From assembly GCA_902499925.1 (NCBI GenBank), contig GCA_902499925.1_4130.1: a stretch of DNA of 64,000 nt; one strand, 5' to 3'. The notes below the pieces were generated by a model. The model saw only the letters and a list, made by a program, of their open reading frames with translations, had not been told where the DNA came from and did not search any database. The position numbers were made by a program, and so were the translations under genes. Position 1 is the stretch's first letter. Each line of letters begins with the position of its first letter. Source of the stretch: Escherichia coli. GTDB taxonomy: Bacteria; Pseudomonadota; Gammaproteobacteria; Enterobacterales; Enterobacteriaceae. Shown one piece after another: positions 29,651 to 43,446 of the stretch.

Positions 29651-29840
29651 AACATTTTATTAGTAATACCCCTTTATCGAAGTCGCTAAGGTTACCCGCC
29701 CTTTAGCCCCCTACGCATTTTGCCATAGTCCAATCCCTTTTTATTCATAAAAGTCAAGGGATTACCTATGCATTTTTTTAACGCTGAAATTTAAAAATGC
29801 CTTGACTTTTTTATGATTCAGTACTAAATCCTTTTACGCA

Positions 29841-30050: not shown

Positions 30051-30118
30051 GTGTATGTACTCCTGATATAGTTAAGGCCGCTAGAGAGCGGCCTATGATG
30101 TTTGATGATGTGTAACGC

Positions 30119-30520
30119 TTACAACCCTAAGATAGTACGTGCTTCGTTGCGTTCCGTCCACAACTGCATGATGTGAGCAAGTAAGTCCTTGCTAATGTAT
30201 CCGGTGTTCATAGCTTCACGGATAGATACATCATAAGCACCGAAGCCAGTGCGAACGATACGCACATCATTCAGGTTAGTGTTATAGATACCGCCGAGAT
30301 CAACGGCTTCGAATACTGCATCAACAGAATATTCATTGTTGCCATCGTTGAAGTTTTCCAGTGCAATAGTATTGGATACCGCCCAACGTTTGCAGTTTCC
30401 AATGATGCGGCACTGTTCCGGTTGGATAGTGCCATTACTTACAGCGTACTCCAGTGCATCTTTACCAAAAGTCCGAGCCAGTACTAAAACGTCAGCGAAG
30501 GAAGTGATTGAGAAGGTCAT
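30119..30520 (-). CDS. Hypothetical protein
   Basis: Start set at ATG 7 nt after TAAGGAG; track N-terminal extension is the promoter/hairpin read through. Confidence 0.7.
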   Translation of the reverse strand: MTFSITSFADVLVLARTFGKDALEYAVSNGTIQPEQCRIIGNCKRWAVSNTIALENFNDGNNEYSVDAVFEAVDLGGIYNTNLNDVRIVRTGFGAYDVSIREAMNTGYISKDLLAHIMQLWTERNEARTILGL

Positions 30521-30540
30521 GATAAAACTCCTTAATTTAG

Positions 30541-30610
30541 GAGGGAGAACCATTTCCCCCTCTCTATGTAAAACATTATACATGAATCTAAGTACTATGC
30601 AAGTACTTTT
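30541..30610 (-). promoter_or_regulatory. Promoter (TTGCAT-N16-TATAAT) plus 5' leader palindrome
   Basis: Minus-strand reading: AAAAAGTACTTGCATAGTACTTAGATTCATGTATAAT then GGGGGAAATGGTTCTCCC then TAAGGAG. Confidence 0.55.
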
Positions 30611-30942
30611 TACATTTTGATACCTGGATTCAGGTAGCGGTGAGATCCATATTCTGGATCGGTTTCGGCCCAGTACTGTAAATCTATAGTACCTTTAGCG
30701 TTAATCTTGTCTACCAGCTTATTCATCTTAGCGTATACTACATCAGCATCGATGCGTTTAAAGCCAGTGGCTTTAGTGAAGTAGTAGTGATTTGCTTCAC
30801 TATCATTAAGGATGTACCGAGCACCGTTTGCCGTTTGTGCAATAATGATTGAGTATTCTACGTTACGGTCGAGGCCGTCAATGAATACAGAGGAAACATT
30901 AGTACGGATGAAAGCTTTAACGATAGCGATTGAAGTAGTCAT
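30610..30942 (-). CDS. Hypothetical protein
   Basis: 110-aa ORF; upstream TTGACA-N17-GATAAT and AGGAG. Confidence 0.7.
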   Translation of the reverse strand: MTTSIAIVKAFIRTNVSSVFIDGLDRNVEYSIIIAQTANGARYILNDSEANHYYFTKATGFKRIDADVVYAKMNKLVDKINAKGTIDLQYWAETDPEYGSHRYLNPGIKM

Positions 30943-31094
30943 TTTGAATCTCCTAACTTTGTGGGCCGTCGCACCGTTGCCGCCCTACGAGATACATTAT
31001 CGCAGTACTGATATACTTTGTCAATACTTTTTTATTAATAGTTTCCACTCCACCAGCAGATAGTTACTCACCGTTATTAACTATATATTTTGGG

Positions 31095-31180
31095 TACACC
31101 TATGCACCCTGTGGGCTAGTTTTTGTCTATGCGTATATAATAGCAAAGGGACTGACCGGAGTCAATCCCTTTTTTTATTC
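31095..31180. repeat. Copy A of ~90-bp intergenic repeat (GCACCCTGTGGGC motif + AAAGGGACTGACCGGAGTCAATCCCTTTTTT hairpin)
   Basis: Near-identical copies at ~33350, ~36615 and ~40624. Confidence 0.6.
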
Positions 31181-31187
31181 TTTTTTG

Positions 31188-31388
31188 TTAGATGATTCTC
31201 CAATCATCAACGATCATGGTAAGATACCGAACCAGTGATCCGAGTGATTCGTGTTCTCGATAGTCTGCCGCTCCACCAGCGGTACAAGTACAGCCGATTA
31301 AGCCGTTTTGTAGTTCCTGGATCTTTACGTCGATCTGGTTGGCTTTAGCTTCTTTCAGTACTTCAACCAGGGCGATAGCGATAGACAT
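31188..31388 (-). CDS. Hypothetical protein
   Basis: 66-aa ORF with own promoter and leader hairpin. Confidence 0.65.
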   Translation of the reverse strand: MSIAIALVEVLKEAKANQIDVKIQELQNGLIGCTCTAGGAADYREHESLGSLVRYLTMIVDDWRII

Positions 31389-31410
31389 AATGTTTTACTC
31401 CAAACTATTG

Positions 31411-31472
31411 GCGGGAGAACTATTCCCCCGCTCTATGTAAAACATTATACATTACTGGTTAGTACTGTCAAA
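31411..31472 (-). promoter_or_regulatory. Promoter (TTGACA-N16-TATAAT) plus leader palindrome GGCGGGAGAACTATTCCCCCGC
   Basis: Read on minus strand immediately upstream of gene start 31388. Confidence 0.55.
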
Positions 31473-31478
31473 TAGTTT

Positions 31479-31736
31479 TTATGAAATATCTTCGATGTAG
31501 TCGGCCCATTTCATTTTTTCAGTACTGTCAATGGCGACCGGATTATTTGGATCAAACCATTCACCATCACCGCAATACATACCCACGGCTACGGTTTTAT
31601 AGCCATCCTGGGCCGCACTCCACGACATTGCACGATAGATATGGCCTTTAACTGGTTGCAGTACTGGTAACGTTTTATGGTCTTCTACGTAGGCCATAGC
31701 TTGAGGATTTACCCGATATTGTGTGAACTGATCCAT
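31479..31736 (-). CDS. Hypothetical protein
   Basis: 85-aa ORF. Confidence 0.65.
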   Translation of the reverse strand: MDQFTQYRVNPQAMAYVEDHKTLPVLQPVKGHIYRAMSWSAAQDGYKTVAVGMYCGDGEWFDPNNPVAIDSTEKMKWADYIEDIS

Positions 31737-31812
31737 TATGTTTCCCCTTGTAGTTAGTAAAGTTATTACATCAGTACTATCAAGCTATGTCAATAGTACT
31801 GAAATAAAACTT

Positions 31813-32037
31813 TTAGATTAGATTATTGAGGCCGTCAATGGTAGACTCACTTTCTTCTTTCTCCCATTGTCGGTAGTACTTCCATGCTTCATGATAGGTG
31901 GCGATTAGTTCATCTTTTTGATCCTGGTTACATGCCAGTACTGAATCACGGTGAGCGGTGTTATAGATAGAATCGAATGATTTCTTCTCTTCTGCCAGGT
32001 TAGCTACTTCCCGCATCAGTTCATCAAAGTTAGCCAT
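31813..32037 (-). CDS. Hypothetical protein
   Basis: 74-aa ORF; leader palindrome GGGGGAGGATATCTCCCCC upstream. Confidence 0.65.
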   Translation of the reverse strand: MANFDELMREVANLAEEKKSFDSIYNTAHRDSVLACNQDQKDELIATYHEAWKYYRQWEKEESESTIDGLNNLI

Positions 32038-32104
32038 TTTATTACTCCTTTTAGTGGGGGAGGATATCTCCCCCTATGCAAAACATTATACGCTTTATTC
32101 AGTA

Positions 32105-32368
32105 CTATGCAAGTACTTTTTTCATATAAAGATTATATTCTACACCGCCGTAACCTTCTACGATGATATGTTTTGCGTTATCACGTTTGCATATAGTAAA
32201 GGCATCGTTGACGTGTTTTGCATTTTCCAGGGCAACATCGCCGATAGCGGCACATACTGAACTAATAACGATATTCCGCAAAGTACTGGTATCATTAGCG
32301 GTCATAGTAGTTTGCAGTACTACGTTGTCGTATACGTGTGCATTGATAGTGATTTCGATAGTGTTCAT
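32105..32368 (-). CDS. Hypothetical protein
   Basis: Start set at MNTIEIT preceded by AGGAG; track extension MFYIERGKWF... is the translated promoter/hairpin. Confidence 0.7.
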   Translation of the reverse strand: MNTIEITINAHVYDNVVLQTTMTANDTSTLRNIVISSVCAAIGDVALENAKHVNDAFTICKRDNAKHIIVEGYGGVEYNLYMKKVLA

Positions 32369-32455
32369 GGTGTATCTCCTGGACTTGAGGGGAAACCATT
32401 TCCCCCTCTCGATATAAAACATTATACGTTAATCTAACTACAATGCAAGTACTTT

Positions 32456-32647
32456 TTAAATTTTATTTCCGATATAGTCCGGTCTATTCTTTTCGGTCAT
32501 ACGCTTTGCTAATGATTGCATATGGCTTATTGCGTTTAATGTGTCTTCCTCCAGGGATGAATCAACATAATCAGGATCATTCTTCACCTTGCAATGATTA
32601 TGATATCGTAGTACTGCCAGTACTTTTTTAACTTCTTCAACTGTCAT
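32456..32647 (-). CDS. Hypothetical protein
   Basis: 63-aa ORF; ATGA overlap with upstream gene. Confidence 0.6.
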   Translation of the reverse strand: MTVEEVKKVLAVLRYHNHCKVKNDPDYVDSSLEEDTLNAISHMQSLAKRMTEKNRPDYIGNKI

Positions 32648-32916
32648 AATAAGTATTCCACTTCGTTAGCTTTCAGGTTAGTATCAATCATCAGTGGATT
32701 TTTGTAGTTCACAAAACGAGTAGTTTTCTCGATAGCGAATCCCATATAATCCAGCTTACTAACAGTACATTCATTCTTAAAAACTTCTTTCGCTGCATCG
32801 ATGGCTGATTGCATGGATAACCGCCCATCTAAGTTAATATTTCCAAATGATCCACCAGCAGAAGTAGGATTACCGTTCATATCTTTAATGATCATAGTAG
32901 CGGAGTAGCTGGACAT
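32644..32916 (-). CDS. Hypothetical protein
   Basis: 90-aa ORF. Confidence 0.65.
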   Translation of the reverse strand: MSSYSATMIIKDMNGNPTSAGGSFGNINLDGRLSMQSAIDAAKEVFKNECTVSKLDYMGFAIEKTTRFVNYKNPLMIDTNLKANEVEYLL

Positions 32917-32937
32917 AATTTTGTTTCCTTTTAGTAT

Positions 32938-32997
32938 CGGGGAGAACTATTCTCCCCTTGATGTAAACTATTATACAGTACTAATATACTTTGTCAA
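32938..32997 (-). promoter_or_regulatory. Promoter (TTGACA-N16-TATAAT) plus leader palindrome GGGGAGAA-cta-TTCTCCCC
   Basis: Hexamers and perfect 8-bp inverted repeat read directly upstream of gene start 32916. Confidence 0.6.
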
Positions 32998-33000
32998 TAC

Positions 33001-33222
33001 TTAATTACGTTTAAAATGATATGTGCCTTTATCATCCTGTACGCCCCATACTGATTTACCATCAACACCAGTGAAACCGGATTGTAATTCAATATGGAAA
33101 CCATTATTATCAACTACAAAAACTTTTTTATTTTCATCCCGATAACATTGATATTCTGAATCAACATTAAAGGCCGCATCATTCAGAAGATTGGAAGCGT
33201 AAATGCAAGTCATTGTAGTCAT
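33001..33222 (-). CDS. Hypothetical protein
   Basis: Start set at MTTMTCIY after AAGGAA. Confidence 0.65.
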   Translation of the reverse strand: MTTMTCIYASNLLNDAAFNVDSEYQCYRDENKKVFVVDNNGFHIELQSGFTGVDGKSVWGVQDDKGTYHFKRN

Positions 33223-33349
33223 GATTTTATTCCTTAATATACCAGGGAGAACCATTTCCCCCTCTCGATATAAAACATTATACTTGATTCTAAGTACAAT
33301 GCAAGTACTTTTTTAAAAATAGTTTTCAGTACTGAATACTTATATAATA

Positions 33350-33438
33350 TATACACTTCCGCACCCTATGGGTCAGTGAGTTATCTCTCAATGAATATAT
33401 AATAGCAAAGGGACTGACCGGAGTCAATCCCTTTTTTA
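33350..33438. repeat. Copy B of ~90-bp intergenic repeat
   Basis: GCACCCTATGGGTCAGTGAG...TATAATAGCAAAGGGACTGACCGGAGTCAATCCCTTTTTT. Confidence 0.6.
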
Positions 33439-33445
33439 ATCTTTT

Positions 33446-34030
33446 TTATCGTGTTACCTTACTTGCTTCTACATCACGCTTTTTATAGTACTGATTCCAG
33501 ATATTGCGGGTTAAACCGTAATCAAGTACTTTAATAAGTCCATTACGATCCTGGCCGATATTCTGTTTTCTGATATCTCTTATCGTTAGTGTTGATAATG
33601 TATCATCAACGTGTTGTAGTGCATCAGCAAAGCGGTGCTGGCGTTCGATTGCATTACGTTTAATATTGTACTTTAATTCGTTGCACGCGTTAACGTGCTT
33701 CACACTGCCTTTACTTGCAGTACTCAACCGATCCATAACGATAAACATATTATCAGGATCGCATAAATGCATATGCACCTTTGCAAAGTACTGTTTCAAC
33801 TGAGGGCGGTCATAGTCTAAAAAATTCCATACCTTACATTCAGTTTCATTTTGTTCTACACCCGCATCACAATTCGCGACCTTAATCACTAACCGATCAT
33901 TTAAAGCGAAAACTATACGGGAAGAACCAGCACCGATGATCTCCAGGCCAGCTAACCGACAAGCTGAAAGGATCTCTTTGTTGGTTTCCATTTCTGACAG
34001 TGTACGGATGAATTTAGTATAATTACGCAT
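33446..34030 (-). CDS. Putative Ser/Thr protein kinase-like protein
   Basis: Gly-rich loop 'GAGSSRIVF', 'VIKVAN', catalytic-loop-like 'RDIRKQNIG' and DFG-like 'LDYGL'; start at MRNYTKF after GGAG. Confidence 0.6.
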   Translation of the reverse strand: MRNYTKFIRTLSEMETNKEILSACRLAGLEIIGAGSSRIVFALNDRLVIKVANCDAGVEQNETECKVWNFLDYDRPQLKQYFAKVHMHLCDPDNMFIVMDRLSTASKGSVKHVNACNELKYNIKRNAIERQHRFADALQHVDDTLSTLTIRDIRKQNIGQDRNGLIKVLDYGLTRNIWNQYYKKRDVEASKVTR

Positions 34031-34061
34031 TGTTTTATCTCCTTGAGTTAATGAAACTATA

Positions 34062-34304
34062 TTACAGTACTTTACTATCAATGGCAACTACTTTTTTAAC
34101 ATTAACGGCGTGGATCACTTCCTTCGTGTTTTTAGTACTGAATACTTTCGCCGCACCATTCACGACCGTGATACGATAGCGACCATTAACATCAACCATA
34201 TTAATAAAGTCCGGCGTGCTGAATGGTGTTGTTTTACATTTCAGTACTGTTAACAGTTCCACCAGCGATGTAGTTTCTTTGATACGTTTTTCTAAAGTAA
34301 TCAT
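34062..34304 (-). CDS. Hypothetical protein
   Basis: Start at MITLEKRIKE; track ORF begins at a TTG inside the upstream leader. Confidence 0.6.
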   Translation of the reverse strand: MITLEKRIKETTSLVELLTVLKCKTTPFSTPDFINMVDVNGRYRITVVNGAAKVFSTKNTKEVIHAVNVKKVVAIDSKVL

Positions 34305-34361
34305 TTTGTTTCCCCCGTGTTGGTATGTACATATAGTACTAAAACATTTGAGTACTGTCAA

Positions 34362-34580
34362 TTAGATAATATTATATTTCTTAAAATAAAATGCGTCCTG
34401 TGTTGGTTGATACTCGATACCGTTACCGTTATTGACTTCAACTAATAAACCTTTGTCAATAAGTTTTTTAATAGTACGATACCCTTGTTGAAAATTGGTA
34501 AAATGTGAATCATTACGAAAGGTATAACCGTGCTTAACTGCTTCATCAATAGTTTTCTTTTCGATTTTAGATAATTTCAT
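34362..34580 (-). CDS. Hypothetical protein
   Basis: Start at MKLSKIEKK; upstream leader duplicated from the previous gene. Confidence 0.6.
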   Translation of the reverse strand: MKLSKIEKKTIDEAVKHGYTFRNDSHFTNFQQGYRTIKKLIDKGLLVEVNNGNGIEYQPTQDAFYFKKYNII

Positions 34581-34633
34581 TTTGTTTCTCCCGTGTTGGT
34601 ATATGTACATAGTACTAAAACAATTGAGTACTG

Positions 34634-34888
34634 TCAACGTGATATTAGTTTTATTTTCTTATTATATTGTTGGTGTTCATATAGGTTTATCTTTCCTGTG
34701 TTCTCTATTACTATTCTGTTGTTAGTGTCTACATCGATTACACGCAGTTTTCCGTTGCTTAACTTCCTTGGTAATAGGTTACCATTAATAAACTCATTAG
34801 CAAGCTGTACGGCCTTTGTGATGATTCTCTGAGGTGCTTTATAGTGTACCCGCAAGATATTATCTTTATATAGTTGAACCTTAATCAT
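34634..34888 (-). CDS. Hypothetical protein
   Basis: 84-aa ORF directly after a terminator hairpin. Confidence 0.65.
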   Translation of the reverse strand: MIKVQLYKDNILRVHYKAPQRIITKAVQLANEFINGNLLPRKLSNGKLRVIDVDTNNRIVIENTGKINLYEHQQYNKKIKLISR

Positions 34889-34902
34889 TTTAGTTTATCC
34901 TA

Positions 34903-34928
34903 TAAAAAAGGCGGGAACTGATCCCGCC
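34903..34928 (-). terminator. Rho-independent terminator
   Basis: GGCGGGATCAGTTCCCGCC followed by TTTTTT on minus strand. Confidence 0.6.
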
Positions 34929-34950
34929 GTGTTGTTAGTACTGCAAGTTA

Positions 34951-35346
34951 TTAGATAACCTGGCGGCGTTTACTGTATACTGTTACACGATTACCCTTAC
35001 GGTCGTGTCGGATCTCTTTCTGGTTGCGAATCAGTTCACTTGGACGCTTAAGGTTTGCCAGGTGATCCGCGTGAGTCCAAGCGGTATGGTTTACCTGTAC
35101 TTTGATATCAGAACCAGCGATAAACTCATCTTGTGCGTTAAGTACTGCCGCCAGATCTTCCGCTCGTTTTAGTTCTGCTGCTGTTAGTACTGGCTCAGGT
35201 GAATTCACAATATCAGAGATCTCTTTGAACTGTACGGCCCAACGTTGGCCTTTCGGTGCATCTTTGCCCATGTCTTTAAATGCTGCTCCTTCCTCGCGTG
35301 CAACAATACGGGCAGCTTCACGGGTAGCGTAGAATTTAGTAATCAT
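34951..35346 (-). CDS. Hypothetical protein (paralog of 47602..47865)
   Basis: Shares 'YFATREAARI...FKDMG' and 'DRKGNRVTVY' with 47602..47865; start at MITKFYATRE after AGGA. Confidence 0.65.
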   Translation of the reverse strand: MITKFYATREAARIVAREEGAAFKDMGKDAPKGQRWAVQFKEISDIVNSPEPVLTAAELKRAEDLAAVLNAQDEFIAGSDIKVQVNHTAWTHADHLANLKRPSELIRNQKEIRHDRKGNRVTVYSKRRQVI

Positions 35347-35441
35347 GGTATACATCCTATTAGTTAAGTTAGTACTACAAGTTAGAGTCTATTATAAAGT
35401 ACTATCTGGGCAATGTCAAATAGTACTTTAAATGGATTCTA

Positions 35442-35765
35442 TTACATGTCTTTCTTACGTTTTACATCGTAGTAGCGAACTGTTATTTCTTTGTTAATCT
35501 CTTTTTCGATGTGGTGAATAACTTTTTCTTTCGGGTTGAAACCTATAACGGTTTCTTTAATGATCTCCAAACCAGTGTATTCGCCTTGTGTGCCGTAACC
35601 GTATGTAAAGGTTTCATGTCCCAGGTCTTCCCAGCGGTCGCCAATTAACGCAGACACGTAGCAAGAGTGGTAAGTATTGCCGTGTGAATCAGTCCACCGA
35701 TTAACTTTAATGTCAAAGGAGGTTACAATTTTCAATTCTACTTTCTGGGCAAGGATCATAGCCAT
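35442..35765 (-). CDS. Hypothetical protein (paralog of 42290..42613)
   Basis: Shares 'RWTDSHGNTYHSC.VS' and 'FTYGYG' with 42290..42613. Confidence 0.7.
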   Translation of the reverse strand: MAMILAQKVELKIVTSFDIKVNRWTDSHGNTYHSCYVSALIGDRWEDLGHETFTYGYGTQGEYTGLEIIKETVIGFNPKEKVIHHIEKEINKEITVRYYDVKRKKDM

Positions 35766-35852
35766 TTTTATTTCTCTCTTTTAGTTAGGAGGGGAACCAT
35801 TCCCCTCACTTGATGTAAACTATTATACAGTACTAAGATACTTTGTCAATAC

Positions 35853-36035
35853 TTATTTTTTGGAAAGTTTACGCATTAATTCTACGCTTTCTTGTGAACG
35901 TTTTGCTACCTGGCAAGCTGCATGGACAGTAAACATTTTTGTATAGTCTGACGCTTTGCCACCGAACCGAGCGGCACGTTCACGGGCACTTGGAACTAAT
36001 ACTATTTCTTTCTTGCAGATAGTGCACTTAGCCAT
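35853..36035 (-). CDS. Small Cys-rich (zinc-ribbon-like) protein
   Basis: MAKCTICKK...HAACQ; start set 45 nt inside track ORF. Confidence 0.55.
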   Translation of the reverse strand: MAKCTICKKEIVLVPSARERAARFGGKASDYTKMFTVHAACQVAKRSQESVELMRKLSKK

Positions 36036-36123
36036 TTTTATTTCTCTCTCTTTGTTAGGAGGGGAACCGTTTCCCCTCACTCGATGTAAACTATTATACA
36101 GTACTAAGATACTTTGTCAATAC

Positions 36124-36399
36124 TTAATTATTGTAAATGTCGTGAATAGTGATAAAGTTTTTACGACCGTAAACCTGCAAATCAATATCAATGTAGTGCT
36201 TATCTAGTACATCCTCGACGCTTAACGCGGTGTCGTGGATATCTTCGTAGAATTGAGGATCTACAATCTTGCTTAAGTCATCCGGCGTTAACTTATCGTT
36301 AAGCCATTGAACCGCCTGGATATCTGCTTCACGTTTCCAGTCTTCCAGGTTAGTAGTCAGTACTTGTTCGATTTCGTTAGCTGTCAGTAGAATCCGCAT
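36124..36399 (-). CDS. Hypothetical protein
   Basis: 91-aa ORF downstream of tandem promoters and structured leader. Confidence 0.65.
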   Translation of the reverse strand: MRILLTANEIEQVLTTNLEDWKREADIQAVQWLNDKLTPDDLSKIVDPQFYEDIHDTALSVEDVLDKHYIDIDLQVYGRKNFITIHDIYNN

Positions 36400-36423
36400 T
36401 TTTATGTTTCCTTATCAGTGGTT

Positions 36424-36600
36424 GATGTAAGTATTATACTCTTTTACTTTCTATTGTCAAACTATTTTATCAGGGGAGGTTTTCTTATGTCTTACTCCTG
36501 GACTACTTAACGGGGTTACTTGTTTCGTTCCCCGTCCTGATGTAAAACATTATACTTGATTCTAAGTACAATGCAAGTACTTTTTTAAAAATAGTTTTCA
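36424..36600 (-). promoter_or_regulatory. Tandem promoters flanking a ~70-nt conserved structured leader element
   Basis: Two TTGACA/TTGCAT-N16-17-TATAAT promoters; between them CAGGACGGGGAACGAAAC...CCTCCCCTG, repeated at ~46925-46998. Confidence 0.5.
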
Positions 36601-36614
36601 GTACTAGCCACCAG

Positions 36615-36706
36615 CATATAATAGATACATTTATGCACCCTGTGGGCTGATTTGTTTCTATGCGTATATAATAGCAAAGGGACTGACCGGAGTCAATCCC
36701 TTTTTC
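36615..36706. repeat. Copy C of ~90-bp intergenic repeat
   Basis: TATAATAGATACATTTATGCACCCTGTGGGCT...AAAGGGACTGACCGGAGTCAATCCCTTTTT. Confidence 0.6.
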
Positions 36707-36714
36707 AATTATTT

Positions 36715-36864
36715 TTAAACTTCTTTCGGGTTGCGATAGGTGATAGCGTTCGGGTACATTTGTTTAATGTTATTCCATGCCTGGTTAACATTGTAACCAC
36801 TTGAGCGAATCAGTTGGTTACTACCGACACCTTGAAACACTACTTCGAATAAGAATTCTTTCAT
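36715..36864 (-). CDS. Small hypothetical protein (~49 aa), not in ORF track
   Basis: ATG overlaps stop of upstream gene (ATGA); translation MKEFLFEVVFQGVGSNQLIRSSGYNVNQAWNN... Confidence 0.45.
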   Translation of the reverse strand: MKEFLFEVVFQGVGSNQLIRSSGYNVNQAWNNIKQMYPNAITYRNPKEV

Positions 36865-37034
36865 GCTTTCACCTCGCGATCTGCTTTACCTTTACGCCAG
36901 GACATTACTAATTGTTCGCGTTGCCATAAGTCGAGTGATACAAAAAGTTTTGCGGTATCACTTTTAGGATACTCGCCATTAGTACCTAACCGATAAAACA
37001 GATCTTTCAGTACTGATAATTCTACTTGGATCAT
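36861..37034 (-). CDS. Hypothetical small protein
   Basis: Start at MIQVELSVLKD; track extension is the translated leader hairpin. Confidence 0.55.
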   Translation of the reverse strand: MIQVELSVLKDLFYRLGTNGEYPKSDTAKLFVSLDLWQREQLVMSWRKGKADREVKA

Positions 37035-37120
37035 TATACTTTCCTCTTTGTTGGGAGGGGAACTATTCCCCTCTCGATATAAAACATTATACACTTTATT
37101 CAGTACTGTGCAAGTACTTT

Positions 37121-37333
37121 TTAATCTTTCAGCCAATGATCCTGAATGAATTTTTCGCCGGAACCTTGCTGCATAGATTGTAACAGACGTTCACGATGAG
37201 CGGCGGCGAATTGCTCAGTACTATGCGTTACACCTGGTTGATATCTGGATTCACCATTGGGGGCGATGTATTGTACATCCCACGGTTTTTCGTTAGTATC
37301 AGACCATTTACGAACGATTAGTTGACCTTGCAT
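37121..37333 (-). CDS. Hypothetical protein
   Basis: 70-aa ORF with promoter and GGGGAGAATCATTTCTCCCC leader. Confidence 0.65.
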   Translation of the reverse strand: MQGQLIVRKWSDTNEKPWDVQYIAPNGESRYQPGVTHSTEQFAAAHRERLLQSMQQGSGEKFIQDHWLKD

Positions 37334-37416
37334 TTTTCTTTCCTCTTAGTGGGGAGAATCATTTCTCCCCTTCATGTAAACTATTATACAGTACTAGATT
37401 ATCTTGTCAATAGTTT

Positions 37417-37740
37417 TTATTCACCTTGTTTGAATTTAGTTTTCTCCATTGATTCCATGATTGCAACCAATACACCGTGGATCTCGCTTAACGCGGAATC
37501 ACTAAAAGCATTAATGAATAGTCGATCATTCTCGCGAATATTTTTAATGTACTTTTCAGCAGTAGTTGCGAATTCATTCAACGGTAGATCAAATGCTTTA
37601 TCCCATGATGGATGGCGTAATTGTAACAGTACTGGATTATCACGATCACCAGGGGAAAACGTACCAGTGATGAAACATACGCCCGGAATACTTTCGAACT
37701 GGCAACGGACTTCCTTTGTGATAGTAGTATGAATGTACAT
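37417..37740 (-). CDS. Hypothetical protein
   Basis: 107-aa ORF; GAGGA SD; likely co-transcribed with 37768..37956. Confidence 0.65.
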   Translation of the reverse strand: MYIHTTITKEVRCQFESIPGVCFITGTFSPGDRDNPVLLQLRHPSWDKAFDLPLNEFATTAEKYIKNIRENDRLFINAFSDSALSEIHGVLVAIMESMEKTKFKQGE

Positions 37741-37767
37741 TTATTGTTATCCTCTATTAAATTAATA

Positions 37768-37956
37768 TTACAGTTTATGAATCAATTCTTTATCTAAGCG
37801 ATAGCGTACATTATTAATGGTAACAGCATTATTTTTAATGCTACGCTGTACAGGTCCACCAGCAATAACAAATGTTGCTTTATTACCCCGAACAATGATA
37901 GCACTTCCAGGATTACCGAAATCATCTTGTACTAAAATACTTGATAAGTTTTCCAT
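37768..37956 (-). CDS. Hypothetical protein
   Basis: 62-aa ORF; promoter TTGCAT...TATAGT and leader hairpin upstream. Confidence 0.6.
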   Translation of the reverse strand: MENLSSILVQDDFGNPGSAIIVRGNKATFVIAGGPVQRSIKNNAVTINNVRYRLDKELIHKL

Positions 37957-38034
37957 TTTTATTTCCTCTTAGTAGGGGAAGATGTTTCCCCTTGATGTAA
38001 GTACTATAACAGTACTGAAAACTAAATGCAAGTA

Positions 38035-38391
38035 CTATGATAAAATCATGATAGGATATTCACTATCGATCAGTACCTCGAATCCGAAACCTTCGTACCA
38101 TTCTTTAAGATTAAAGGCGTTATCTTCTCCCGTATCGCATTCTAAGATGATACAATCTGAATCATCAGCGGCATCGATAAAGGCATTCATTAATTCGTTA
38201 CCTTCACCATTGCCCCGACTATCAGGATCAACATAAAGAGAATCAATAAACGCTACACGGTCATAATCAAGATCCGGTGCAATGATTCCACGTTTAACAA
38301 ACCAGTACTGCAATTGTGCTACTTTGCCCTGTACTTGATAGCCAGTGATCTCGCCATTGTCAGTAGTACGCGTGATATGTTGTATTCCCAT
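38035..38391 (-). CDS. Putative GNAT-family N-acetyltransferase-like protein
   Basis: 'IDSLYVDPDSRGNGEGNELMNAF' resembles acetyl-CoA-binding motif A; TTGACA-N16-TATAAT upstream. Confidence 0.55.
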   Translation of the reverse strand: MGIQHITRTTDNGEITGYQVQGKVAQLQYWFVKRGIIAPDLDYDRVAFIDSLYVDPDSRGNGEGNELMNAFIDAADDSDCIILECDTGEDNAFNLKEWYEGFGFEVLIDSEYPIMILS

Positions 38392-38455
38392 GATTACTAT
38401 CCTCAGTTAAGATATAAAACATTATACACTATCTTTCAGTACTGTCAATTACTTT

Positions 38456-38713
38456 TTATCTCATAGATCTATGCCAACAATTACGCGGGGGACGTTTAAA
38501 AGTACTATCATGATCCTCCTGGCAAGTAATGCAGTACATGCACCCTATAACGGCCTGGCGTCGATTCTCAGGGATTTTATCGCCGCAGTCGAGGCAATGT
38601 ACTAGTGATTCTCTTTGTGCGTTAATTTGCTTTCTAGCGTGGTTGACGGCGGCCTGAATCACTGCGTTGATCTCGTCTTGTTCGGCCCCGTCTTTCGCGT
38701 ATCCTACTGCCAT
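38456..38713 (-). CDS. Putative DksA/TraR-type C4 zinc-finger protein
   Basis: 'HCLDCGDKIPENRRQAVIGCMYCITCQ' gives CxxC-N17-CxxC spacing. Confidence 0.55.
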   Translation of the reverse strand: MAVGYAKDGAEQDEINAVIQAAVNHARKQINAQRESLVHCLDCGDKIPENRRQAVIGCMYCITCQEDHDSTFKRPPRNCWHRSMR

Positions 38714-39042
38714 TATTTTAACCTCATTATAAAAATACTATAGTACTGTAATGCTACAATAATACTACTAGTGTTTATCTTATTCAAACCATATGATACT
38801 ACATATCCATCAGCATTACCACGGATAGTAACGCCTTTGTACTGTCTATATAAATTCAACTGCGTATATTGCCTTTGATCAAGAATTGATCAGAATTATA
38901 CGCCTTATGCTAAATTAATCCAGTACTTTTTTGATCATTTATTGATCGATATTATATAGTTACATTTGTGCACCCTATGGGTTAGTGACGTTCTCGTCTT
39001 GATGTAAGTATTATGCCAGTACTGGAGGATATTGTCAATAGA

Positions 39043-39240
39043 TTATTTTAATTTTTTTCTGTCATTGATTAATGCTTTCAGTACTATACTAATAACTTGC
39101 AATGATTCATCAATGACAATGAAATTATTCTCTTTCATTAGATGATAGTTACCATTGATTGTATATTCTAACGAGTACTGTTTACGTTTAATTTTTGATA
39201 ATGTTTCTATTTGTTTTTGTACTGATTTCATGCTAATCAT
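39043..39240 (-). CDS. Hypothetical small protein
   Basis: ORF in AT-rich spacer; start taken at first ATG (track begins at TTG). Confidence 0.35.
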   Translation of the reverse strand: MISMKSVQKQIETLSKIKRKQYSLEYTINGNYHLMKENNFIVIDESLQVISIVLKALINDRKKLK

Positions 39241-39313
39241 TGTCAAACGTCCTGTAACGCATTCTAACGAGATAAACGGTTTAGTACTGGCATTGTATAG
39301 GGTAAATGATTAA

Positions 39314-39339
39314 AGCCCACCAGCGTTAACCAGTGGGCT
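39314..39339 (-). terminator. Rho-independent terminator
   Basis: AGCCCAC-N12-GTGGGCT hairpin followed by T-rich tract on minus strand. Confidence 0.55.
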
Positions 39340-39345
39340 ATAATC

Positions 39346-39489
39346 TTACATCTTGCGGATAATCTTAACAGTATCTTTCACCGATTTACCGTTTTGCTGA
39401 CATTGCTCGATCATCGCGTATTGTTCTGCGGTCAGATCCTCGCCAGTTTTTGCCAGTACTGCGTCGATGAATGAATCCAGTGCGATCAT
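39346..39489 (-). CDS. Small hypothetical protein (~47 aa), not in ORF track
   Basis: Own TTGACA-N16-TATAAT promoter; translation MIALDSFIDAVLAKTGEDLTAEQYAMIEQCQQNGK...; terminator downstream. Confidence 0.45.
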   Translation of the reverse strand: MIALDSFIDAVLAKTGEDLTAEQYAMIEQCQQNGKSVKDTVKIIRKM

Positions 39490-39588
39490 TTTGTTTCTCT
39501 CTTAGGTTAAGTTAACTACTGTTTATAAAACTTATTATACAGTACTATCAAACGTTGTCAATATCTTTAATAGTACTGGTAATATATT

Positions 39589-39768
39589 TTAGCGGTAATC
39601 GTCGTATGCTTTATTCACCTGGCGAATGTAACTTTCAAAGGCTTCGTCTACCGTTTCATACTCCCGAACATAATCACCATAGGAAACTACATACATACCT
39701 TTTTGATCTTCAAACGTCATGATGATAGAATCCAGGCCGATGATTTCAGTTTTTGCGATGATAGCCAT
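39589..39768 (-). CDS. Hypothetical small protein
   Basis: Start at MAIIAKTEII after AAGGA; upstream TTGACA-N17-CATAAT. Confidence 0.55.
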   Translation of the reverse strand: MAIIAKTEIIGLDSIIMTFEDQKGMYVVSYGDYVREYETVDEAFESYIRQVNKAYDDYR

Positions 39769-39850
39769 TTTTAATTCCTTAGTAGTGTAGTTGATAAAAG
39801 TTATTATGCCAGTACTATCAATCAGTGTCAATAGTACTGTGATAATATTT

Positions 39851-40063
39851 TTAGTTAATGATAGTCAGTGTAAAATTGTAATCCCCTGCCTGGTATAGTA
39901 CTTTGTCGCCGAACGTTCCAACACGTTTCATATTGCAATAGATACCCATAACACTTTTTACATCTTTGATATTCCGAACGCCAGTAATATCCTTGTTTAA
40001 ATGATCGTGATCAGAAAATAAAACTTGTTTTGCATTTTTCAGTACAGTGCAGATATTAGCCAT
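39851..40063 (-). CDS. Hypothetical protein
   Basis: 70-aa ORF; promoter and GGGGAGAATCATTTCTCCCC leader. Confidence 0.6.
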   Translation of the reverse strand: MANICTVLKNAKQVLFSDHDHLNKDITGVRNIKDVKSVMGIYCNMKRVGTFGDKVLYQAGDYNFTLTIIN

Positions 40064-40157
40064 TTTGTTTTCTCTCTGTTAGTGGGGAGAATCATTTCTC
40101 CCCTTGATGTAAACTATTATACAGTACTATAATCTATTGTCAAACTATTTTTTTATA

Positions 40158-40499
40158 TTATTCGAAATCTTCTGGACCGGACTGATAATCATCTTCACCG
40201 TATGCACTTTCTAACCGCTCACCAGTGTGATCATCAGTTAGTGAGTCATCCTCATAGTTCACGTCTACGCCAGTGATGTAAAACTGGCTATCGTCTGGAT
40301 CATTGAAATTAATTTTTTGGATGTTTACAATAACTGTATTGATACCCAGGACACCGCCATCAGCCGTTACAAAGTACTGATAGTTTTCGCAACCGCCTGA
40401 ATTGAAACCGTAATTAATTTCGGCCCGACCATCATTTAAACGCAGTGCCTGGGCGATGATTTCATTTTCAAAGTTAGATTGAGCAATTGAGATAGTCAT
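40158..40499 (-). CDS. Hypothetical acidic protein
   Basis: 113-aa ORF with promoter TTGCAA-N16-TATAAT and GGGGAAACGGTTTCCCC leader. Confidence 0.65.
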   Translation of the reverse strand: MTISIAQSNFENEIIAQALRLNDGRAEINYGFNSGGCENYQYFVTADGGVLGINTVIVNIQKINFNDPDDSQFYITGVDVNYEDDSLTDDHTGERLESAYGEDDYQSGPEDFE

Positions 40500-40623
40500 G
40501 ATTTGTTTCCTTATTACCAGGGGAAACCGTTTCCCCTTTCGATGTAAAACATTATACGCTTATTGAGATAGTTTGCAAGTACTTTCTACAAATACTTTTA
40601 AAATAGTTTTCAGTACTCAAACA

Positions 40624-40727
40624 TTATATAATAGATACACTTATGCACCCTGTGGGCTAGTGAGCTATCTCTCAATGAATATATAATAGCAAAATGGCTG
40701 ACCGGAGTCAACCACTTTTTTCATTTA
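40624..40727. repeat. Copy D of ~90-bp intergenic repeat
   Basis: TATAATAGATACACTTATGCACCCTGTGGGCTAGTGAGC...AAAATGGCTGACCGGAGTCAACCACTTTTTT. Confidence 0.6.
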
Positions 40728-40864
40728 TTTTTAGCTTTTAGAATCGCCGCCTTTCGCGTCATGCCTTGCTTGATGTATTCCTGTACTTTCGCTTTACGTG
40801 CATTCGCTTTATTTGCTTTCGTAAACGCCGAACAACTTTTATAATTTAAGCCTGTTGGATTCAT
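40721..40864 (-). CDS. Small basic hypothetical protein (~47 aa), not in ORF track
   Basis: Start directly after stop of upstream ORF (TAAATG); Lys-rich; followed by terminator hairpin. Confidence 0.4.
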   Translation of the reverse strand: MNPTGLNYKSCSAFTKANKANARKAKVQEYIKQGMTRKAAILKAKNK

Positions 40865-40954
40865 TTAAATCACCATAAAGAATAGATAGGTTACTAACAA
40901 TGCCGCGATCAATGCACCGACCAGGGCCGAACTATAGTAAGCTAATGATTTCAT
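40865..40954 (-). CDS. Small hydrophobic peptide (~29 aa), not in ORF track
   Basis: ATGA overlap with upstream gene; MKSLAYYSSALVGALIAALLVTYLFFMVI is a single predicted TM helix. Confidence 0.4.
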   Translation of the reverse strand: MKSLAYYSSALVGALIAALLVTYLFFMVI

Positions 40955-41103
40955 TTTTTAGCCTGAAAGTAATGTTTAATTTGAGCGGCGGTCAGTGCAC
41001 AATTACGCAGGAAGTTTTCTGTATAACTGCGGCGAGTACTGAAAGAGAATTGACCTTTGCCGTTACCGATAGTAACATCAAACCGAGCGTTGTATTGTTT
41101 CAT
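40951..41103 (-). CDS. Hypothetical small protein
   Basis: Start at MKQYNARF after GGAG; track extension is promoter/hairpin. Confidence 0.5.
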   Translation of the reverse strand: MKQYNARFDVTIGNGKGQFSFSTRRSYTENFLRNCALTAAQIKHYFQAKK

Positions 41104-41184
41104 TTTGTTTCTCCTGTTATTGGGGAGAATCATTTCTCCCCTTCATGTAAAACATTATACAGTACTAAAAACTAATTGCAAGTA

Positions 41185-41331
41185 CTATTTTTTAGATTTA
41201 CGCAAACTTTCTACCATCTCAGGAGTAAGGCCAGGCGGGTAGAAAACCACTTCATCAACGAAACGTAAAGGGAATACCCCATCTAAGGTTGAACGTGCTT
41301 TCTTGTTAGTACTCTTTTTTGATGCTTTCAT
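41185..41331 (-). CDS. Small basic hypothetical protein (~48 aa), not in ORF track
   Basis: Own promoter (TTGCAA-N16-TATAAT), GGGGAGAA leader and TAAGGAA SD; MKASKKSTNKKARSTLDGVFPLRF... Confidence 0.5.
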   Translation of the reverse strand: MKASKKSTNKKARSTLDGVFPLRFVDEVVFYPPGLTPEMVESLRKSKK

Positions 41332-41400
41332 TTCATATTCCTTAATTAGTGGGGAGAATCATTTCTCCCCTTCATGTAAAACATTATACGCGTTTAAAAA

Positions 41401-41610
41401 CTAATTGCAAGTACTATTTGAAAGTAAATGCTCATACGCTGCATTAACTACGTTTTCAATAACCGACTGTACAGAAAGATCCCCCACGGCCTGGCTATAG
41501 TAGAAATCGCTTACAGTGGTGTCATCGTATGCAAATACTTTACCAGGTACTGCATCAATCACATACATATTAACCTTTAAGATGTCGATCTTATCCTGTA
41601 CAGTAAGCAT
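41401..41610 (-). CDS. Hypothetical protein
   Basis: 69-aa ORF. Confidence 0.6.
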   Translation of the reverse strand: MLTVQDKIDILKVNMYVIDAVPGKVFAYDDTTVSDFYYSQAVGDLSVQSVIENVVNAAYEHLLSNSTCN

Positions 41611-41615
41611 ATTAA

Positions 41616-41888: not shown

Positions 41889-41939
41889 GGTATAATCCCC
41901 AATATAAGCGGCCTGAATCGACCGCTAACGATGTTTTGA

Positions 41940-43425: not shown

Positions 43426-43446
43426 AGTGATTCAGTACTTTAATTG

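Follow-up and report, generated by a model that had tools for sequence, protein, structure and literature searches.

Lambda nutL/nutR (boxA and boxB), the rrn leader (boxB-boxA-boxC) and HK022 put are promoter-proximal anti-termination leaders. The lambda PR'-6S RNA-tR' unit couples a strong constitutive promoter and an adjoining specific element to a short terminated RNA, and Q proteins need a -10-like pause element. T4-type phages carry PeSL (promoter-early stem-loop) cassettes (Arbiol et al. 2010, PMC2839356; Comeau et al. 2014, PMC4122927). By RNA-seq, the long terminal repeat of the jumbo phage PA5oct, a reported relative of the 121Q/Rak2 group, yields non-coding RNAs that make up 1-5% of phage reads at each of the time points sampled; ncRNA001 and ncRNA002 measure 236 and 451 nt (Lood et al. 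2020, PMC7318152).

The 64,000-nucleotide stretch of DNA analyzed here (the window) originates from a Rak2/121Q-like jumbo coliphage (Asteriusvirus). We think it reasonably probable that four intergenic repeats within it are minus-strand terminator-promoter-leader cassettes of an immediate-early region, with the leader acting as an RNA tag. According to its annotation, the vB_Ec-M-J record has Direct Terminal Repeats at 1-21525, of which position 1 maps to window position 50381 and position 21525 to about 29690; the G17 record likewise ends at window position 50381. All 10 promoter-plus-leader units of the window, and one degenerate copy, lie inside this terminal repeat, and a covariance-model search of the window returned zero units outside 31,083-49,312. 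Across the whole TH47 genome, all ten units fall within one 16-kb stretch of the same region. The leader appears to be confined to the terminal repeat of Rak2/121Q-like giant phages. Many small ORFan genes surround the element, and cassette indels distinguish relatives there; the gene strand around the four copies is minus.

All four copies (~31095-31180, ~33350-33438, ~36615-36706 and ~40624-40727) are present where a sequence-only reading had placed them. Allowing up to two mismatches, GCACCCTGTGGGC is matched nine times against 0.20 expected, a count reached in none of 100 shuffles, and the hairpin 20-mer GACTGACCGGAGTCAATCCC four times with up to three mismatches (0.00 expected). The two middle subtypes described earlier are borne out by the 5' segment, which is short and A-rich in copies 1 and 3 (short subtype) and forms a 4-bp hairpin, UGAG-AGAUAR-CUCA, in copies 2 and 4 (long subtype). 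Other parts of that description need correction. TATAATAGATACA, claimed for all four copies, occurs in copies 3 and 4 only; copy 2 has TATAATATATACA and copy 1 lacks such a box. The supposed partial copy at ~49125 is indeed degenerate; those at ~38970 and ~47185 carry the motif and are complete promoter-plus-leader units without the GC hairpin. The repeat as first described is a portion of a bigger unit that includes an A-tract and a minus-strand sigma-70 promoter, and the earlier description missed four inverted units on the plus strand (boxes at 44964, 47129, 49065 and 49280). Both strands are represented among the window units (Table 1).

Table 1. Coordinates of the terminal repeat, the four copies and the further units in the window
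Feature	Position	Strand	Support or remark
Direct terminal repeat of the phage genome, ~20.7 kb, holding every unit	29690..50381 (boundaries approximate)	.	
Copy 1 hairpin/terminator AAAGGGATTGACTCCGGTCAGTCCCTTT, contains -35 TTGACT	31145..31172	-	terminator-like, 12 pairs
Copy 1 A-tract, 5' of hairpin	31173-31179	-	
Upstream gene, putatively terminated by copy 1 hairpin	31188-31388	-	
Copy 1 sigma-70-type promoter TTGACT-17-TATTAT + TG	31137..31165	-	10 of 12 matches; predicted start near 31130
Copy 1 leader, short subtype, UAG-ACAAAAA-CUA, then box, then T-block	31083..31139	-	covariance model 51.9 bits, E = 9e-9
Copy 1 box CCCACAGGGTG	31105-31115	-	
Copy 2 hairpin/terminator with -35	33407..33434	-	scan, fold
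Kinase-like gene, putatively terminated by copy 2 hairpin	33446-34087	-	
Copy 2 promoter TTGACT-17-TG-TATTAT	33399..33427	-	scan; predicted start near 33392
Copy 2 leader, long subtype, hairpin UGAG-AGAUAA-CUCA	33340..33396	-	covariance model 56.6 bits; fold
Copy 2 box CCCATAGGGTG	33362-33372	-	
Copy 3 hairpin/terminator with -35	36676..36703	-	scan, fold
Copy 3 promoter TTGACT-17-TG-TATTAT	36668..36696	-	scan; predicted start near 36661
Copy 3 leader, short subtype, box 36636-36646	36614..36670	-	covariance model 49.7 bits
Copy 4 hairpin AAAGTGGTTGACTCCGGTCAGCCATTTT, stem variant, fully paired on minus including G.U	40691..40718	-	scan, fold
Copy 4 promoter TTGACT-17-TG-TATTAT	40683..40711	-	scan; predicted start near 40676
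Copy 4 leader, long subtype, box 40646-40656	40624..40680	-	covariance model 57.8 bits
Unit without GC hairpin, promoter TTGACA-17-TG-CATAAT (39038 to 39010) + leader	38949..39038	-	scan, covariance model
Leader of the preceding unit, GACG-AGAA-CGUC, box CCCATAGGGTG		-	
Unit, TTGACT-17-TG-CATAAT + leader (GGC-AGAUAA-GCC, CCCATAGGGTG)	47165..47251	-	scan, covariance model
Unit, consensus promoter TTGACA-17-TG-TATAAT + leader (CCCACCGGGTG)	47079..47161	+	scan, covariance model
Stand-alone unit, TTGACA-17-TG-CATAAT, leader 44940-44996	44907..45045	+	scan, fold (z = -2.8), covariance model
Terminator-like hairpin of the stand-alone unit	45016-45036	+	scan
Unit, variant box (CCCAGGGGGTG), pointing to terminal-repeat end	49009..49097	+	covariance model 36.6 bits
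Unit, TTGCTT-16-TATAAT + leader (GUC-GAGAAA-GAC, CCCACCGGGTG)	49225..49312	+	covariance model 41 bits
Degenerate copy, CCCAY box half lost, GGGTGCGGGAGTGTATC kept	49101..49158	-	covariance model 22.3 bits, E = 0.04

Read on the minus strand, each copy runs from the A-tract through the hairpin with its -35 TTGACT and 17 nt to the extended -10 TGcTATTAT. The GC hairpin has the form of an intrinsic terminator and lies directly 3' of the stop codon of the upstream minus-strand gene; its left arm doubles as the -35 hexamer (TTGACT) of a near-consensus promoter for host sigma-70, the extended -10 sits within its U-rich tail, and the A-run 5' of it occupies the UP-element position. A promoter scan found TTGACT-17-TG-TATTAT on the minus strand at all four copies, and the placement of TGcTATTAT 17 nt past TTGACT is kept in every unit examined. 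The earlier proposal that the hairpin can terminate the upstream minus-strand gene is supported by three observations: on the minus strand, and there alone, the scan called all four hairpins terminator-like; in phage G17, ARNOLD annotations assign them to the gene strand; and their stability is strand-biased. RNA folds give -19.5 (minus) versus -13.2 (plus) kcal/mol for copies 1-3 and -16.9 versus -6.4 kcal/mol for copy 4. Among relatives the promoter strand yields the stabler hairpin in 32 of 37 (average difference 4.8 kcal/mol), because G.U pairs there turn into C.A mismatches on the opposite strand.

This bias bears on another claim of the sequence-only reading, namely that the plus strand gives a small RNA, about 85-90 nt long and antisense to the genes, running from the TATAATAG box to the hairpin and T-run. 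The hairpin does still fold at -13 kcal/mol on the plus strand, where a T-run comes after it (6-7 T in copies 1, 2 and 4; 5 T in copy 3), but it contains C.A mismatches where the minus strand pairs G.U, and 6 of the 10 units are hairpin-free yet keep the promoter and module in the minus sense of the cassette. The second TATAATAG is the reverse complement of the minus-strand extended -10. As for the first plus-strand TATAAT, a usable -35 and spacing accompany it in copy 3 only (TTTTCA-16-TATAAT); copies 1, 2 and 4 have no plus-strand -35 at usable spacing, and the segment varies freely in relatives (TATAGT, TATTAA, CAAAAT, CTTAAT, others). This TATAAT lies in an AT-rich stretch unconserved among relatives, and we consider a plus-strand RNA very improbable. 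A small non-coding transcription unit seems to lie on the opposite (minus) strand, with other boundaries than those first described.

The repeat had also been suggested to be a miniature mobile element, which can be extended to a PeSL-type recombination cassette that moves genes around. It is repeated and intergenic, amid small ORFan genes with cassette indels between relatives, and at one orthologous site the leader core is replaced with its flanks unchanged; this patch replacement does indicate recombination or gene conversion among copies. However, the four copies occupy identical sites in G17, Ecwhy_1, 121Q and TH47, with no insertion polymorphism seen, and a casual rather than systematic reading of the flanks noticed neither target-site duplications nor terminal inverted repeats. 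Mapped indel breakpoints fall in another repeat family, a gene-proximal promoter with a 5'UTR hairpin (for example 32904-33002, 38017-38438 and 38724-39042). We hold mobility of either kind to be highly unlikely.

The minus-strand cassette reading extends to relatives. Each of 71 motif matches from the window, G17, Ecwhy_1, Rak2, GAP32, 121Q and other ~350-kb contigs has a sigma-70-type promoter (9-12 of 12 matches) in the same orientation as the box, its -10 ending 20-29 nt upstream of the box; in one of the 71 the -10 was picked by eye. Further contigs hold additional promoter-plus-leader units, and the architecture is identical in all units examined from Rak2, GAP32, 121Q and related contigs. 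About a quarter of units form convergent pairs and about an eighth are terminated some 90 nt downstream; in about 10 stand-alone units a terminator hairpin begins 51-52 nt past the box, and none of the four copies has a terminator 3' of the leader module. Within the window, the 47165..47251 (-) and 47079..47161 (+) units are convergent and form a long inverted repeat (z = -5 to -6), the 38949..39038 unit (-) lies upstream of a DksA/TraR-like gene (38456-38713), and the 44907..45045 unit, which is convergent with gene 45042-45293, would produce an RNA about 100 nt long. Alternatively, the box could be the upstream element of a phage middle-type promoter that replaces the -35 (compare the T4 MotA box), with a -10-like hexamer exactly 12 nt downstream. 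Such a hexamer (TATTAT, TATACT, CAAAAT, TATAGA) does stand exactly 12 nt past GGGTG in all ten window units. It is unconserved across genera (TGTTGA, CAGTAC, AGTACT, CTTAAT, ATTTTT, others), and a sigma-70 promoter always precedes the box at constant spacing, which would be superfluous for a promoter element acting alone, making this alternative extremely unlikely.

The leader, roughly 50 nt long, begins about 7 nt past the -10 and consists of a small 5' hairpin, a 4-5-nt linker, the box CCCAYNGGGTG, a spacer of exactly 6 nt, and the T-block, T(G/C)YRTC. No match to Rfam families or E. coli sequence was found, nor a description in the literature. The 5' hairpin is real: its stem covaries or differs between copies beneath a conserved A-rich loop, with similar loops capping at least 15 different stems, and its summed fold energy is -135 kcal/mol versus -47.6 +/- 8.4 in shuffled sequence (0 of 500 shuffles reach it). 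Individual leaders fold no better than shuffled sequence (z = -0.1 to -1.4). The box could fold as an RCCC-AYN-GGGU triloop hairpin; its stem positions never vary among distinct leaders, so covariation supporting the pairing was not found. Testing for co-evolution of the 5' segment with the T-block gave a negative result (p = 0.34 and 0.14).

Some of these features would also suit a DNA-level operator, in which the box and the T-block 6 bp on form a bipartite double-stranded site for a phage or host protein. Such a protein would occupy about +15 to +50 at the strongest immediate-early promoters, pausing, blocking or otherwise controlling them; the 5' hairpin would then be an unrelated mRNA-end feature. 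Nine box positions are invariant across 49 distinct aligned leaders, compensatory change is absent, and the interval from box to T-block aligns gap-free in all 49. This fixed 6-nt spacing and the partly palindromic T-block (often a partial palindrome, such as ATAGAT-CT-ATCTAT in L052) fit a double-stranded site equally well. Units stand in any orientation relative to genes, also as inverted pairs, and T-block-like sequences (ACGYCCAAAAT) and an 8-bp TAGCCGTC array occur box-free near the repeat end. The spacing, read off the leader alignment, also fits the RNA polymerase pause pattern G(-11)G(-10)...Y(-1)G(+1). Yet the box is non-palindromic and its orientation to the promoter is identical in every unit, the adjoining hairpin is under clear RNA-level constraint, stand-alone units with their own terminators resemble RNA genes, and no DNA-binding domain was detected among the scanned terminal-repeat proteins. 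We regard an operator as a possible but unlikely explanation.

A processive anti-termination site of the lambda nut, HK022 put or rrn leader kind would place the function in RNA: the leader would load a factor onto RNA polymerase just past the early promoter, permitting read-through of the repeat's many terminators into the array of promoter-less genes that lies past about 29.7 kb. In every unit the module is promoter-proximal, and it combines a covarying stem and purine-rich loop (GAGAAA, GCGAAA, AGAACAA, AGAUAA) with an invariant stretch; the scan found eight distinct terminator-like hairpins on the gene strand from 31 to 45 kb, and the gene-proximal promoter repeat has zero copies left of about 30.5 kb. 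Against it stand the convergent and early-terminated units described above and the orientation of the window units, of which four in ten are directed away from or against genes; moreover, the box is unlike the boxA consensus, and single leaders, unlike put, are not significantly structured. Among 30 terminal-repeat-encoded proteins scanned, no RNA-binding or anti-termination domain was found and no N-, Q- or NusG-like protein was seen. A processive anti-termination site is, in our judgment, quite improbable.

We propose that host RNA polymerase starts at the cassette promoters within the first minutes of infection and that the module works at the RNA level, tagging the 5' end of immediate-early transcripts for recognition by a phage or host protein. 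Judged from its sequence pattern, the leader is most likely a protein-binding RNA tag on such transcripts. At the four copies the module would lead transcripts continuing toward the next gene; elsewhere in the repeat and in relatives, a lone promoter and module ending at a terminator would give a small RNA of about 95-100 nt, and others occur as convergent pairs. The tag might work in cis, through factor recruitment (stabilisation, anti-termination), or in trans, as an abundant decoy. Starts, placed by the usual spacing of about 7 nt past the -10, are predicted, as are termination and the RNAs themselves.

The terminator/promoter fusion resembles PeSL cassettes. Both are small intergenic composites with a strong sigma-70-like early promoter, an AT-rich upstream segment and a GC stem-loop terminator/attenuator, often inside the promoter between -35 and -10, and both are repeated many times among ORFan genes of hyperplastic regions. 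PeSL hosts are T4-type, whereas the present phage is Rak2-like. A PeSL ends in the Shine-Dalgarno and start codon of the next gene; here a conserved non-coding module follows, and in the window a second promoter stands between module and gene. The mapped indel breakpoints fall outside the cassette, in another repeat family, and nothing in the PeSL description corresponds to the invariant box. Like anti-termination leaders, the module lies just downstream of early promoters, pairs a small purine-rich-loop hairpin with an invariant block, and recurs at several promoters per genome; it differs in lacking similarity to boxA, in having loops of 6-8 nt rather than a GNRA-like pentaloop, and in that many units are directed against genes or meet a terminator in the first 100 nt or so. 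The stand-alone units recall lambda PR'-6S RNA-tR' in joining a strong promoter and adjoining element to a putative short terminated RNA, but the -10-like pause element is unconserved, each repeat holds about ten copies in varied orientations, and no Q homologue was seen among the scanned proteins. At the PA5oct ncRNA001 and ncRNA002 loci the box is absent, and no sequence similarity was found; the likeness lies in the terminal repeat itself, which expresses abundant non-coding RNAs in PA5oct and is predicted to encode the leader RNAs here.

The repeat family is real and more structured than first described, and its proper reading is on the opposite, minus strand. All four copies of the ~90-bp element claimed by the sequence-only reading (copies 1-4) are present, and the repeat is far above chance: the 13-mer GCACCCTGTGGGC occurs nine times in the window with at most two mismatches versus 0.20 expected, and the shared hairpin 20-mer four times versus 0.00 expected. 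The two subtypes of the middle segment are likewise real. What had been taken for partial copies at ~38970 and ~47185 are complete units (a sigma-70-type promoter followed by a ~50-nt leader) without the GC hairpin, whereas that at ~49125 is a decayed copy. The plus strand carries four more units, in inverted orientation, at 44964, 47129, 49065 and 49280.

By megablast, the region shares 94-96% identity with jumbo coliphages of Asteriusvirus (Ecwhy_1, CRJP21, G17 and 121Q among them), and between 28 and 52 kb it is the minus strand that carries the ORFs matching annotated G17 and Ecwhy_1 genes. Most of these ORFs have their own sigma-70-type promoter, 5'UTR hairpin and ribosome-binding site, parts that themselves form gene-proximal repeat families with the layout TTGCAA or TTGACA, 16 nt, TATAAT, 5'UTR hairpin (GGGGAGAA..TTCTCCCC) and ribosome-binding site. 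In the vB_Ec-M-J record, positions 1-21,525 are annotated as direct terminal repeat; in the alignment its position 1 equals window 50,381, where the G17 record also ends, and its position 21,525 falls at about window 29,690. This mapping therefore places copies 1-4 wholly within the terminal repeat, whose boundaries would, by the annotation of vB_Ec-M-J and the end of the G17 record, be ~29,690 and 50,381. The inner boundary separates two gene styles: tightly packed ORFs that overlap give way there to genes that each have a promoter. The megablast listing also includes 11 'Campylobacter' phage records (host Campylobacter jejuni) matching this E. coli jumbo-phage region, which is odd for such distant hosts; these records may be mislabelled or contaminated. 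Rak2/121Q-like phages rank with the largest coliphages, over 80% of their genes are without known function, and hardly any work has addressed their takeover of the host during the first minutes.

Read on the minus strand, each copy runs from the upstream gene's stop codon through an A-run and the hairpin AAAGGGATTGACTCCGGTCAGTCCCTTT to GCTATTATAT. The promoter scan finds TTGACT-17-TATTAT, with TG two bases before the -10, at 4/4 copies, and a run of 5-7 A precedes this TTGACT-17-TG-TATTAT at each. The hairpin, of 12 pairs and -16.9 to -19.5 kcal/mol, covers the -35 and the spacer; its left arm doubles as the -35, and its U-rich tail holds the extended -10. The A-run, described earlier as a T-run, would occupy the position of an UP element, judged by the published consensus.

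The strand on which this hairpin acts bears on two proposals of the sequence-only reading. That it could terminate the upstream gene on the minus strand agrees with the terminator scan, which flags all four hairpins as terminator-like on that strand only. The predicted intrinsic-terminator form is a GC-rich hairpin followed by UUUGCUAUUAU on the minus strand and a weaker hairpin followed by U5-7 on the plus strand, with fold energies of -19.5 versus -13.2 kcal/mol for copies 1-3 and -16.9 versus -6.4 for copy 4; G.U pairs of the minus-strand hairpin become C.A mismatches on the plus strand. Among promoter-embedded hairpins of relatives, the promoter strand is the more stable in 32 of 37. The G17 record annotates the regional hairpins as gene-strand terminators, four of which sit 32-38 nt upstream of the orthologous boxes (the leader motif CCCAYNGGGTG). 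The hairpin is an RNA-level feature of the minus strand. The second proposal, a small RNA transcribed from the plus strand, could draw on the weaker terminator form there, but it is unlikely because the -10 assigned to it either falls in sequence that is not conserved or is the minus-strand extended -10 in reverse complement, and because six of ten units have no hairpin and still keep the minus-sense architecture. Overall, the copies show a predicted terminator and a promoter compactly fused on the gene strand; the leader family that follows them is conserved and specific to this phage group's terminal repeat.

After the -10, the leader follows the same order in every unit: CAU(A/U), a small hairpin, a 4-5-nt linker with a purine end, the box CCCAYNGGGTG, C plus 5 nt, the T-block T(G/C)YRTC and then AT-rich sequence. 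Viral contigs were scanned for the pattern, and the element turned up in Rak2 (Klebsiella), GAP32 (Cronobacter), 121Q and other contigs of ~350 kb. All 71 motif matches examined have, in the orientation of the box, a sigma-70-type promoter that scores 9-12 of 12, with 20-29 nt from the -10 end to the box (the -10 of one match was picked by eye); more units are present in further contigs, beyond these 71. The box is invariant at nine positions across 49 distinct leaders, and no gap is needed to align box and T-block.

The 5' hairpin of the leader is statistically supported, its summed energy being -135 versus -47.6 +/- 8.4 kcal/mol for shuffles (0/500 shuffles as low), and at least 15 different stems occur under similar A-rich loops, including GGC/GCC, UGAG/CUCA, GACG/CGUC, AGCA/UGCU, ACCG/CGGU and GGAG/CUCC. 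The 'short' leaders (13/49), which carry an A-rich 5' segment in copies 1 and 3 in place of the 4-bp hairpin of copies 2 and 4, have no stable hairpin predicted (0 kcal/mol) and at most 2-3 pairs by eye. The box could fold as an RCCC-AYN-GGGU hairpin; its stem positions never vary, and there is therefore no covariation for or against this pairing. RNAalifold on the 49 leaders returned only the 4-pair hairpin of the box, with no covariation; leaders folded individually were no more stable than shuffles, and long-range pairing of the 5' segment with the T-block was negative when cognate and swapped partners were compared. Similar strings occur elsewhere in the window. Two strong minus-strand terminators, at 43,404-43,425 and 44,141-44,161, have stems AGCCCAC...GTGGGCT, whose left arm, AGCCCAC, equals the box's first half plus the bases just before it, perhaps by coincidence, and at 49,610-49,665 the T-block-like sequences ACGTCCAAAAT and ACGCCCAAAATCCGTC, without a box, resemble the variant T-blocks carried by units 49065 and 49280.

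TH47, a complete genome of 352 kb, has 12 matches to the pattern CCCNNNGGGTG. Promoter-plus-leader units account for ten of them, all of which fall at 88.9-104.9 kb, the homologue of window 31-49 kb, and a single palindromic terminator contributes the other two. Searched with a covariance model of the leaders, the window gave nothing convincing outside 31,083-49,312. Phages of Escherichia, Klebsiella and Cronobacter have in common a leader with nine invariant bases, found only in the stretch of DNA that both ends of the genome carry.

When 78 distinct units were sorted automatically by context, 45 (about 58%) lacked a terminator within ~150 nt, 20 (about a quarter) formed convergent pairs that make long inverted repeats (z = -5 to -6 for the pair at 47113-47217), and 13 were flagged with a downstream terminator, about 10 of them convincing as stand-alone. 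In stand-alone units the terminator hairpin begins 51-52 nt past the box, giving predicted RNAs of ~95-100 nt. Such units have both the promoter and the terminator that would delimit a trans-acting small RNA gene, whereas copies 1-4 have their own promoter and no terminator after the leader module. In copies 1-4, promoter, ~50-nt module, another promoter-like site and gene follow in that order, and in each of the six gene-sense units of the window another promoter-like site precedes the gene. A second strong promoter (10 of 12 or better) after the module is not general in relatives, being found at 25% of units versus 18% of control positions (not significant).

Coordinates of the repeat copies and neighbouring features in the window
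Feature	Position	Strand	Remarks
Copy 1	~31095-31180	minus	short subtype
Copy 2	~33350-33438	minus	long subtype
Copy 3	~36615-36706	minus	short subtype
Copy 4	~40624-40727	minus	long subtype
Stand-alone unit	44907-45045		own promoter and own terminator; like about 10 units in relatives
Gene-proximal repeat (D1, D2, D5-D9, D13)	30,500-48,800		14-18 copies
Indel	32904-33002		duplicated flank; comparison with G17/Ecwhy_1
Indels	38017-38438 and 38724-39042		absent from G17
Kinase-like gene	33,446-34,087	minus	ends at copy 2 hairpin; Pkinase E = 0.003, below Pfam cut-off
GNAT acetyltransferase	38,035-38,391		in terminal repeat
DksA/TraR zinc-finger protein	38,456-38,713		in terminal repeat

A miniature mobile element had also been suggested for the repeats. 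Copies 1-4 occupy orthologous sites in G17, Ecwhy_1, 121Q and TH47, and a MITE-like element is not supported, as these four relatives show no presence/absence polymorphism; by eye, no terminal inverted repeats or target-site duplications were noticed at copies 1-4. Indel junctions between the window and G17 or Ecwhy_1 do occur, in the gene-proximal D1/D2 promoter/5'UTR repeats and not in copies 1-4. At one orthologous site the ~45-nt leader core is of the long subtype in the window and of the short subtype in TH47, with the same flanks, a difference that points to patch exchange among copies.

Several other features of the window merit mention. AGTACT occurs 284 times in window 1-64000 versus about 21.5 expected from base composition, most densely at 32-56 kb and often as CAGTACTG (65 times). 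It is found in promoter spacers right before the -10 (CAGTACTGGCATAAT) and immediately upstream of the -35 (AAAAAGTACTTGCAA), and it may be a protein-binding site; its core resembles the SlmA site, GTGAGTACTCAC. About 0.8 kb from the repeat end lies an array of 8-bp period, TAGCCGTC (12.4 copies, 64% matches; 49,475-49,573), and 10-bp repeats ATGATTACAT flank that end at 50,294-50,317 and 50,523-50,560; these could be iterons or a terminus-processing signal. A plus-strand tandem array of about eight paralogous ~1.2-kb units spans 55,383-63,996, each with its own promoter and a conserved N-terminus (MLPFVRM...), and their Ecwhy_1 homologues are annotated 'putative DNA condensation protein'. Dispersed families D15-D19, spaced a few hundred bases apart at 5,200-24,000, suggest expanded families of putative small paralogous genes outside the terminal repeat.

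We propose that the leader probably works as RNA, because of its covarying hairpin, its strict orientation to the promoter and the stand-alone terminated units, and that it may be a binding tag for a putative protein partner. A double-stranded DNA operator is a serious rival to an RNA tag, because the box is invariant, the spacing from box to T-block is fixed and inverted pairs of units are present. To look for a partner, 30 proteins encoded in the terminal repeat were scanned with Pfam; no anti-terminator or RNA-binding domain was found, only a weak kinase, GNAT, the DksA/TraR zinc finger and DUFs; the kinase-like gene is annotated as a Ser/Thr kinase in several relatives.

For the RNA reading, we tentatively suggest that promoter and leader could form an undescribed immediate-early class of Rak2-like terminal repeats that supplies a ~50-nt protein-binding RNA tag, in cis or in trans. 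Such a tag would consist of the variable hairpin and an invariant CCCAYNGGGUG hairpin, and would be made in bulk from about ten near-consensus host promoters per repeat, presumably firing via host RNA polymerase immediately upon infection. In cis, the tag might affect stability or reprogram host RNA polymerase, serving as an anti-termination or pause site of a new kind; in trans, it might be an abundant decoy that soaks up a host RNA-binding or defence factor. A literature search found no transcriptome of an Asteriusvirus or Rak2-like coliphage. We infer the function of the leader, and its conservation and restriction to the terminal repeat are striking. The regulatory grammar of the terminal repeat is now defined as compact terminator/promoter fusions plus a leader element. 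An element so conserved and localized offers a handle for finding its reader protein and for understanding how jumbo phages that transcribe with host RNA polymerase control early transcription, and the terminator-in-promoter layout, a very compact insulating part, may be of use to synthetic biology.

We compared the element with known systems. Against Rfam 15 (cmscan, E <= 5), the stretch at 28-52 kb had no matches beyond two to Trp_leader, both sub-threshold and both at ordinary terminators; a tRNA/tmRNA scan gave none. Host mimicry was rejected, as no leader-like sequence occurs in 5,426 complete E. coli genomes. To our knowledge, the box, compared by eye, fits none of sigma-32/sigma-54 promoters, CsrA sites, CRISPR repeats, the OmrA/B seed, preQ1-I or RfaH ops. 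Unlike lambda nut, the leader has no sequence like the boxA consensus, and its loops are A-rich and of 6-8 nt, not a GNRA-like pentaloop as in boxB. A T4 middle promoter of MotA-box type, with the box as -35 substitute about 12 bp upstream of a conserved TAnnnT -10, fits the spacing in the window, but the -10 is unconserved in relatives; this reading and a Q-type loading site, which would need a conserved -10-like pause element at fixed spacing downstream, were dropped because the hexamer that follows the box at 12 nt varies between genera. Searching the literature for leader motif strings returned unrelated primers only. The CBB paper on this phage group covers early promoters of RpoD-like type, a TGAAACG-type class and a class resembling T4 late promoters, and the leader is absent from it (PMC5259590). 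PA5oct, a reported relative, expresses abundant terminal-repeat non-coding RNAs (PMC7318152), but these RNA-seq-defined RNAs share no sequence with the leader.

Copies 1-4 share with PeSLs, the promoter-early stem-loop cassettes of T4-type phages, a strong promoter close to the sigma-70 consensus, AT-rich sequence upstream of it, and a stable GC stem-loop in or beside the promoter, a predicted terminator of upstream transcription. In contrast to copies 1-4, a PeSL ends in the Shine-Dalgarno sequence and start codon of the next gene, as do the gene-proximal repeats D1 and D2. Indel junctions in the cassettes are PeSL behaviour in T4-type phages (PMC2839356, PMC4122927); the junctions placed in D1/D2 relative to G17/Ecwhy_1 match these reports but concern the gene-proximal family, whereas copies 1-4 have none and are kept in place. 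No description of the leader was found in the papers searched. The element is a composite regulatory cassette: its terminator/promoter part is PeSL-like in kind, differing in these two features, and to it a leader module has been added.
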